Part shown: piece after piece, positions 1 to 1,045 of the stretch
How the letters are laid out: every line of letters begins with the position of its first letter
Numbering within the stretch: position 1 is the first letter of the stretch
IMG/VR virus record: IMGVR_UViG_2579778670_000004
Reading direction: 5' to 3' (one strand)
Source: a virus
Taxonomy: Duplodnaviria > Heunggongvirae > Uroviricota > Caudoviricetes
Length of the DNA: 44,004 nt
Program-made: the position numbers and the translations under genes
The notes under the pieces: model-generated
Database searches by the model: none
What the model saw: the letters and a program-made list of their open reading frames with translations, nothing else
What the model was told of the DNA's origin: nothing

Positions 1-271
1 TTACTCCAGAGACAGCCGAACCGAAAAACCGTTTTCAGCGAGCGTCAGACTCAGTGTGTTGATAGTCCAGTCCCGGTCCTCCTCGGTCCCGAAACCTTGA
101 GTTGTGACTTTGCATTCTGCTGTCAGCGACACTAAATCGAGCGTCGCTGGCGTCGTGTACGTCATAGAGAACTCTTTTTTAGCTGCACCGCCCTTGAGCC
201 CTGGTGCAGCTTCTTTCGCTGCGTCGAGCGACGGCTCAACTGCCGGCCATTCAATGACAGGATCGCCGCCA

Positions 272-1045
272 CTACCTTGTCCGCAATTCTTTGATCTGCC
301 CAGTTGCTGTGTCGTGATATTTAATCAGATACGTCGGTTCCGGATTTTCGCCACCGCTACCACTATCGCCACTTTGTCCATTTCTCGAATAGCCCCAGCT
401 GGAGTTATCACGACGAGTTAGCGTGTAGTGCTGGAGCGGAGCACCGCTAACAGATTCGCCCGCGCCGCGCGGCAGGAATATCCAGTACCCGCCCGCGGGT
501 TTACTCACCGCATCGAATCTCGTTGCGAGCCGCGACATCAGGTGCATATCTGACTCGCCGACCTGATCGAGTTGCGTGATAACATTGTCTGCAAACCGCT
601 TTGATACGCGTGGTTTTAGCCCATTATCGCTCGCTATTGTCGCAACGATATCGCTGACAGTGACGTCGCTCCAGGAACGAGTCTTTTTGCTCTGAACTGT
701 CGGAGATCCTTTTGCTGCGTTCATCGGAGCCGCTTTTGCTGTGAAATCAACTACCCGGGGTTCACCGCCACTGCTAGCACCGTCAACGATGTATATCCCT
801 TTATCAATTATCTGATTACCGAAACCGAGCCCAATACTGATTTTTACTCCGCGGGCCGGAATTTTCAGAGTTTCAGAAACTATTGCTACGCGGAGTTCGT
901 CTGTCTGTTTACTGGAGCCGCCGTAATCTGTCAGCGTGATATTGATCAAACCTTTTCTTATTTTATCCGTGATGTTTTTATTATCAGCAGATATATAAAA
1001 ATTAGGTTTCCACGCCTCCACGCCAGTATTTACGTAATCACTCAT
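272..1045 (-). CDS. Phage tail/late control protein D (P2 gpD family); probably frameshifted or truncated at its C-terminus
   Basis: 257-aa ORF at the distal end of a P2-type tail gene order (T-U-X-D). Manual translation of the minus strand shows a second frame open from 324 down to a TAA at 1..3, overlapping the end of this ORF. Confidence 0.55.
   Translation of the reverse strand: MSDYVNTGVEAWKPNFYISADNKNITDKIRKGLINITLTDYGGSSKQTDELRVAIVSETLKIPARGVKISIGLGFGNQIIDKGIYIVDGASSGGEPRVVDFTAKAAPMNAAKGSPTVQSKKTRSWSDVTVSDIVATIASDNGLKPRVSKRFADNVITQLDQVGESDMHLMSRLATRFDAVSKPAGGYWIFLPRGAGESVSGAPLQHYTLTRRDNSSWGYSRNGQSGDSGSGGENPEPTYLIKYHDTATGQIKELRTR

Follow-up and report, generated by a model that had tools for sequence, protein, structure and literature searches.

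Gene D and its neighbours

The window, that is, the whole 44,004-nucleotide stretch of DNA analysed here, carries an E. coli prophage of approximately 43 kb, flanked by yecA and the tRNA-Leu gene leuZ, with its tyrosine integrase adjoining the tRNA. An exact repeat of 125 bp is found at both prophage ends, at 42934..43058 and in a copy just beyond the left edge of the window, on the yecA side. This repeat is probably the att duplication that bounds the element. The prophage (1..43058) is a mosaic, in which a P2-type contractile tail is combined with head genes like those of lambda (gpW, portal, S49 protease, decoration protein and FI), with a Q antiterminator and with a region for immunity and replication in lambdoid style.

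As expected for a member of the hub family, gene D is located at the distal end of the contractile-tail module, beside the gpU and X genes. The gene order in RefSeq is sheath, tube, assembly protein, a 546-aa ORF, gpU, X and D, with the baseplate genes V, W, J and I further upstream. The features at this end of the module are as follows:

272..1045, minus strand: truncated gene D ORF, 257 aa, from the ATG at 1045..1043 to the TAG at 274..272
277..278, minus strand: site of the 1-base insertion, AA (TT on the plus strand) versus a single A in the intact allele
4..276, minus strand: out-of-frame remainder of gene D, 91 codons corresponding to residues 257-347 (GSGGDPVIEW...SVRLSLE), with the original stop, TAA, at 3..1
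1..165, minus strand: 54-aa ORF (MTYTTPATL...) within the orphaned C-terminal frame, picked up by gene callers
1049..1273, minus strand: gene for tail protein X, adjoining D on its upstream side (PF05489 Phage_tail_X, E=2.3e-15, which passes the cut-off)
1435..1863, minus strand: gpU-family tail gene (PF06995 Phage_P2_GpU, E=3.1e-31)
1860..3500, minus strand: 546-aa ORF, placed where P2-type tail modules have the tape-measure gene

Judging by this position, the 546-aa ORF may encode the tape measure protein.

Translation of the D ORF gives hub residues 1-256, with Arg replacing Gly257, and then the TAG. On the same strand, a second frame (codon starts 324, 321 and so on) is free of stops over 107 sense codons (324 to 4), and is limited by a TGA at 327..325 and by the TAA at 3..1. 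Passing from the first frame to the second requires a +1 shift. The initial annotation had described this arrangement (a 257-aa ORF, a frame open from 324 down to the TAA at 1..3 and an overlap of both at 275..324), and had pointed out that the junction contains no homopolymer. All these coordinates hold on recheck, and just the AA dinucleotide is present at 277..278.

In the list of ORFs, the first start codon of the orphaned frame is the ATG at 165. Since there is no earlier start, separate translation could supply no more than 54 of the 91 lost residues, and the 37 residues from 257 to 293 are left uncoded. The 54-aa ORF that begins at this ATG is a fragment of gene D, not a gene in its own right.

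The intact allele and the hub family

Four GenBank prophage records match positions 1..1300 of the window at 99.9-100% identity. Three of these are identical to the window, and are annotated with a 774-nt 'tail formation protein D' and a 165-nt 'hypothetical protein' (Gene D protein); in ON470596 the 54-aa ORF appears as 'hypothetical protein / Gene D protein'. The remaining record, ON470604 (99.9% identical), is one base shorter and has a single D gene of 1044 nt, encoding 347 aa. When ON470604 was aligned with the window, the sole difference at the junction was the extra A of the window at 277/278 (ACAAGG versus ACAGG), and the whole-prophage comparison with strain SK1144, which has an intact D, reports 'window pos 278 T -> -'. 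Residues 1-256 of the intact 347-aa ORF are those of the window's 257-aa ORF, and residues 257-347 are those of the +1 frame, from 276 to 4. At the junction, the window reads CGG ACA AGG TAG versus CGG ACA GGT AGT in the intact allele, and the protein changes from ...Arg-Thr-Gly-Ser-Gly-Gly... to ...Arg-Thr-Arg-stop, with 257 residues instead of 347. Thus, the proposal in the initial annotation that a gpD-family gene is split here by a frameshift, and that the fused frames would give a protein of typical gpD length, is borne out by an allele that has one A less and a 347-aa ORF.

A search of a large protein collection with the intact-form protein retrieved 102 homologues, at 26-97% identity. 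All but two of them are single ORFs of 312-442 aa (query coverage 57-100%). The first exception, of 209 aa, is a partial entry taken from a contig of 628 bases, and the second (P0009, 257 aa) is 100% identical to the stump encoded in the window and is therefore the same allele. The 18 homologues at 60-97% identity have 347-354 aa each, bar the frameshift product itself. The more distant ones, the partial entry aside, have 313-442 aa, and in diverged relatives a single ORF spans 81-100% of the intact protein. A tblastn search of phage genomes gave 117 records covering at least 80% of the 347 aa; in gene D of Xanthomonas phage FoX2, residues 14-347 were covered in one aligned piece.

In a multiple alignment, the two frames of the window were placed end to end on the homologues, the downstream frame aligning column for column with their C-termini. 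The stranded part includes an invariant residue, W326, and a nearly invariant one, G339. Since the homologues are single ORFs, and since both frames of the window align end to end on them, the single ORF is ancestral and the insertion is derived. Alignment of both frames with gpD-family proteins by tblastn and HMM, the comparison proposed in the initial annotation, thus matched the downstream frame with gpD C-termini (26-97% identity). The opposite outcome, a 257-aa product aligning along the whole of the intact homologues and a downstream frame unlike gpD, was not obtained: the 257-aa product (P0009) covers 74% of the intact homologues, and the 4..324 frame resembles gpD C-termini.

Profile searches gave a similar picture. 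The 257-aa ORF matches phrog_52 'tail protein' at profile positions 186-417 (E=1.9e-74), the intact form matches it with E=2.7e-94, and the window stretch 4..282 alone matches positions 425-512 (E=1e-13). Because this stretch matches the C-terminal part of the 257-aa ORF's own profile, the second frame is not open by chance. The 54-aa ORF and phrog_7984, a family of 54 aa and unknown function, align over their full length (E=4e-41), and consequently this PHROG family matches debris of a frameshifted gene D. The only Pfam match is PF05954 Phage_GPD, where the 257-aa ORF scores 22.4 bits and the intact form 23.8 bits, versus a gathering cut-off of 30.1; the downstream frame by itself gave no match in Pfam. 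Precomputed Pfam labels put PF05954 on nearly all the homologues, the truncated P0009 included. In NCBIfam, the intact form and the 257-aa ORF each had nothing beyond a weak match to VgrG_rel, and the source records of close homologues carry the name 'late control protein D'. Since PF05954 scores below the gathering cut-off, the assignment to the gpD family rests on PHROG, structure and synteny.

For the structure, a confident AlphaFold model (pLDDT 85.4, pTM 0.80) was made of the intact representative P0001 (97% identical, same length). In Foldseek, the P0001 model matched the pyocin R2 hub 6u5h (E=6e-20, TM 0.73 on target), as well as Mu gp44 (1wru/9ki1), MuSo2 (3cdd), the P1 hub (9vzk) and T4 gp27 (1k28), with a probability of 1.00 throughout. 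VgrG spikes are likewise among its structural matches. Counting gaps, the alignments to the hubs are 353-394 columns long (10-21% sequence identity, TM 0.63-0.73 on target), as would be expected if most of the 347 residues of the model were aligned. The intact representative P0001 therefore has the hub fold. Note that the sequence search of the PDB matched the pyocin hub over residues 13-222 (E=2e-22); the C-terminus lies outside this match and is reached by the model and Foldseek.

In the P0001 model, truncation removes the strand 260-270, the helix 273-289 and the strands 292-299, 312-316, 325-336 and 339-346. The lost segment would thus be an integral part of the hub fold. The uninterrupted ORF needed for the whole fold is absent from the window, where the gene stops after codon 257 of 347. 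Gene D of the window is a hub gene of the gpD/gp44/gp27 type by descent, and a frameshift pseudogene by state.

Another reading of the same ORFs would be that the 257-aa protein is a naturally short, functional hub, and that the downstream frame belongs to a different gene, unrelated or expressed on its own. RefSeq/PGAP treats the truncated D ORF in this way, as an ordinary 'hypothetical protein' (WP_001296153.1) with no frameshifted-pseudogene flag, and a 54-aa ORF has been called downstream; the RefSeq name for the intact allele is 'contractile injection system protein, VgrG/Pvc8 family'. However, apart from the same allele and the partial 209-aa entry every homologue has at least 312 aa, the downstream frame shares homology with the C-termini of gpD proteins, its first start leaves out residues 257-293, and strands of the conserved core are in the missing part. 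We give a split gene almost no chance of being correct.

Origin and distribution of the insertion

The initial annotation had left two options, a real frameshifted gene or an indel error in the sequence. We searched for the junction in 5,426 complete RefSeq E. coli genomes, 435 of which contain it, in the following forms:

Exact frameshifted 81-mer: 364 complete genomes
Exact intact 80-mer: 66 complete genomes
Other junction variants: 5 complete genomes

One of the carriers of the frameshift, EC958, is a PacBio assembly (PMC4134206). The source of the three records identical to the window is a set of UK clinical isolates with Illumina/SPAdes assemblies, analysed with PHASTER, which scored these prophage regions as 'intact' (bioRxiv 10.1101/2022.06.29.498070).

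Single-base indels are the commonest assembly error, and a 99.9%-identical record has the intact form; an error in a true sequence with a single A and an intact D gene could in principle account for the window. Against this, the 364 complete genomes with the exact junction were produced by many laboratories on a range of platforms, the junction is shared by the PacBio-assembled EC958 and the three Illumina/SPAdes records, the site is a dinucleotide and not an error-prone homopolymer, and the allele follows the fimH lineage in the six strains checked (6/6). The recurrence of the junction across PacBio and Illumina data, at a site of this kind, led us to set the indel error aside as hardly credible. 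Thus, of the two options, the real frameshifted gene stands.

The fimH types of these six strains were taken from PMC4933990 (Table 1):

CD306: H30S, frameshifted D
MNCRE44: H30R1, frameshifted D
EC958: H30Rx, frameshifted D
SaT040: H22, intact D
G749: H22, intact D
ZH063: H35, intact D

Since every fimH30 ST131 strain checked (3/3) carries the insertion, these six strains with a published fimH type suggest that its origin lies on the stem of the fimH30 (clade C) ST131 lineage or earlier, and that it has been inherited since then.

A real insertion could still be bypassed during translation. Ribosomes shifting +1 at the AGG before the UAG (AGG UAG U read as AGG, AGU) would make a full-length hub with a Gly257Arg change, and this could provide low-level function. 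The required shift is indeed +1, the site falls exactly at a rare Arg codon, AGG, directly before a stop (a 'hungry codon / shifty stop' context), and the shifted product would regain the native frame with a single substitution. Moreover, a tail requires just three copies of the hub. However, the two-frame layout is not conserved: the 99.9%-identical alleles, among them those of the 66 near-identical E. coli genomes, and all the diverged homologues are single ORFs, and for this reason nothing points to selection for recoding. Unlike in prfB, there is no Shine-Dalgarno-like stimulator upstream (ATCAAAGAATTGCGGACA); on reading the sequence, neither an X XXY YYZ heptamer nor a Shine-Dalgarno-like stretch was found upstream of the AGG-UAG, and the rare AGG ahead of the stop was the one suggestive feature. 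Re-pairing of the tRNA-Arg(CCU) on GGU would be poor as well, and any slippage would be incidental, probably well below 1%. Programmed frameshifting at the D junction is therefore unlikely, and we consider it very improbable that recoding provides a working hub.

State of the prophage and relation to known systems

We compared the window with the intact-D prophage of SK1144 over 38 kb. The two are 99.98% identical, and differ by five substitutions, two 1-base indels and one IS insertion. The two indels are the D insertion and one base in an intergenic poly-C tract (27729..27736, C8 in the window versus C9 in SK1144), the only other indel in the 38 kb. The poly-C difference could reflect a slippage-prone tract or assembly noise. 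Given this near-identity with an element whose D gene is whole, the prophage is young and almost complete, with D as the one visible lesion in a virion gene, and its decay is recent and limited.

Several mobile or repeated sequences were observed in the element. An IS3-family element of 1,248 bp (38154..39401, with the minus-strand genes orfA, 39027..39365, and orfB, 38182..39000), which is present in neither MNCRE44 nor SK1144, interrupts a 738-aa prophage ORF, now found as 37197..38306 and 39353..40666. MNCRE44 has a 1.9-kb insertion at the position corresponding to 23259..23266 of the window (MNCRE44 locus 24830..26714), with an ISEc53 transposase and a ClbS/DfsB-family gene, that the window does not have. 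In addition, two copies of approximately 78 bp (25923..26000 and 29345..29422), in the same orientation and 89.7% identical, flank a 3.4-kb segment with one hypothetical gene and one gene for an LprI-family lysozyme inhibitor. This segment may be a cargo cassette.

What would the insertion mean for the phage? Hubs of the gp27/gp44 type are trimers that seed the assembly and polymerisation of the tail tube, and D is an essential tail gene in P2. In the explanation that we propose, gene D is the gp27/gp44-type baseplate hub gene of the P2-type contractile tail, in which the extra A at 277/278 places an Arg257 and a stop, with the last 91 codons out of frame. The truncated protein would most likely be unable to form the trimeric hub, because the lost segment would be integral to the fold and gpD is essential in P2. 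Without a hub, the prophage would be unable to assemble tails or to release infectious particles, and the result would be a decaying prophage that is inherited vertically. The D gene is thus probably inactive. We hold with high confidence that the hub gene D of this P2-type prophage has been broken by a real, inherited insertion of one A, that the truncated hub is likely dead and that the prophage is decaying.

A more far-reaching proposal would be that the hub-dead prophage has been fixed in fimH30 ST131 by selection, either for a dominant-negative stump or for a grounded prophage that keeps its cargo, or else that slippage at the AGG-UAG keeps the phage weakly viable. We regard this proposal as a long shot; if there had been selection, the hub stump could interfere when related phages superinfect and assemble their tails. 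The searchable literature yielded no data on expression, induction or particles of this prophage.

Coming back to the broken, inherited hub gene, the prophage is probably tail-less in the fimH30 ST131 strains checked, which bears on the prediction of inducible or transducing prophages in ST131. The insertion could also serve to mark the lineage, distinguishing fimH30 from fimH22 and fimH35 genomes. Moreover, it exposes three annotation artefacts, namely the RefSeq name of the stump, the PHASTER score of 'intact' and phrog_7984 as a match to the 54-aa debris. Hundreds of public genomes already contain the frameshifted allele, and we found no paper describing it: the EC958 genome paper (PMC4134206), the ST131 evolution paper and a literature search on ST131, prophages and leuZ contain no mention of the D frameshift.

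With respect to known systems, the gene is related to P2 gpD (PF05954, 'late control D / tail formation protein D'), which like the window gene is located at the end of a P2-type tail module. The relationship to the D proteins of the P2 group is distant. In tblastn, gene D of the P2-like phages Wphi, fiAA91-ss and PSP3 has approximately 30% identity over residues 14-220, the local alignment ends at about residue 220, and the Pfam scores are under the cut-off. The intact form has 347 aa versus about 387 aa for P2 gpD, and the window gene, in addition, is broken by the 1-base insertion. The intact-form model superposes over essentially its whole length on the pyocin R2 hub (6u5h), Mu gp44 (1wru/9ki1) and T4 gp27, and the version in the window lacks the last 91 residues of this fold. 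The N-terminal half of VgrG is grouped with the same type of hub. By analogy with the pyocin, Mu and T4 hubs, an intact hub would act as a trimer joining the spike to the tail tube.

The D junction also has similarities with the programmed frameshifts of P2 E/E', lambda G/GT and the +1 type of prfB, since it involves overlapping frames on the same strand, a tail operon and the +1 geometry of a codon before a stop. Unlike in those systems, relatives do not share the layout found at D, and no stimulator is evident. In the same operon, the gene for the tail assembly chaperone (3609..3890, minus strand) is followed by a -1 frame open to 3478, which overlaps the start of the 546-aa ORF, and an A AAA AAC heptamer at about 3585 falls after the zero-frame stop of this gene. 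As far as the sequence goes, the layout at 3478..3890 would be the expected, conserved E/E' programmed frameshift, which would place the expected programmed site of the operon there and not in D.

Finally, a parallel exists with the frameshift pseudogenes of E. coli cryptic prophages, in which likewise a single-base indel causes a premature stop in an essential virion gene. Both gpD-type hubs and pseudogenes of this kind are well known; the D frameshift is a case of ordinary pseudogenisation and prophage decay, and leaves the understanding of gpD-type hubs unchanged. As in cryptic prophages, this element also carries an IS insertion (38154..39401) and appears to be inherited vertically within a clone. 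Unlike in typical cryptic prophages, the remainder of the element is almost intact, at 99.98% identity to a copy with a whole D gene.
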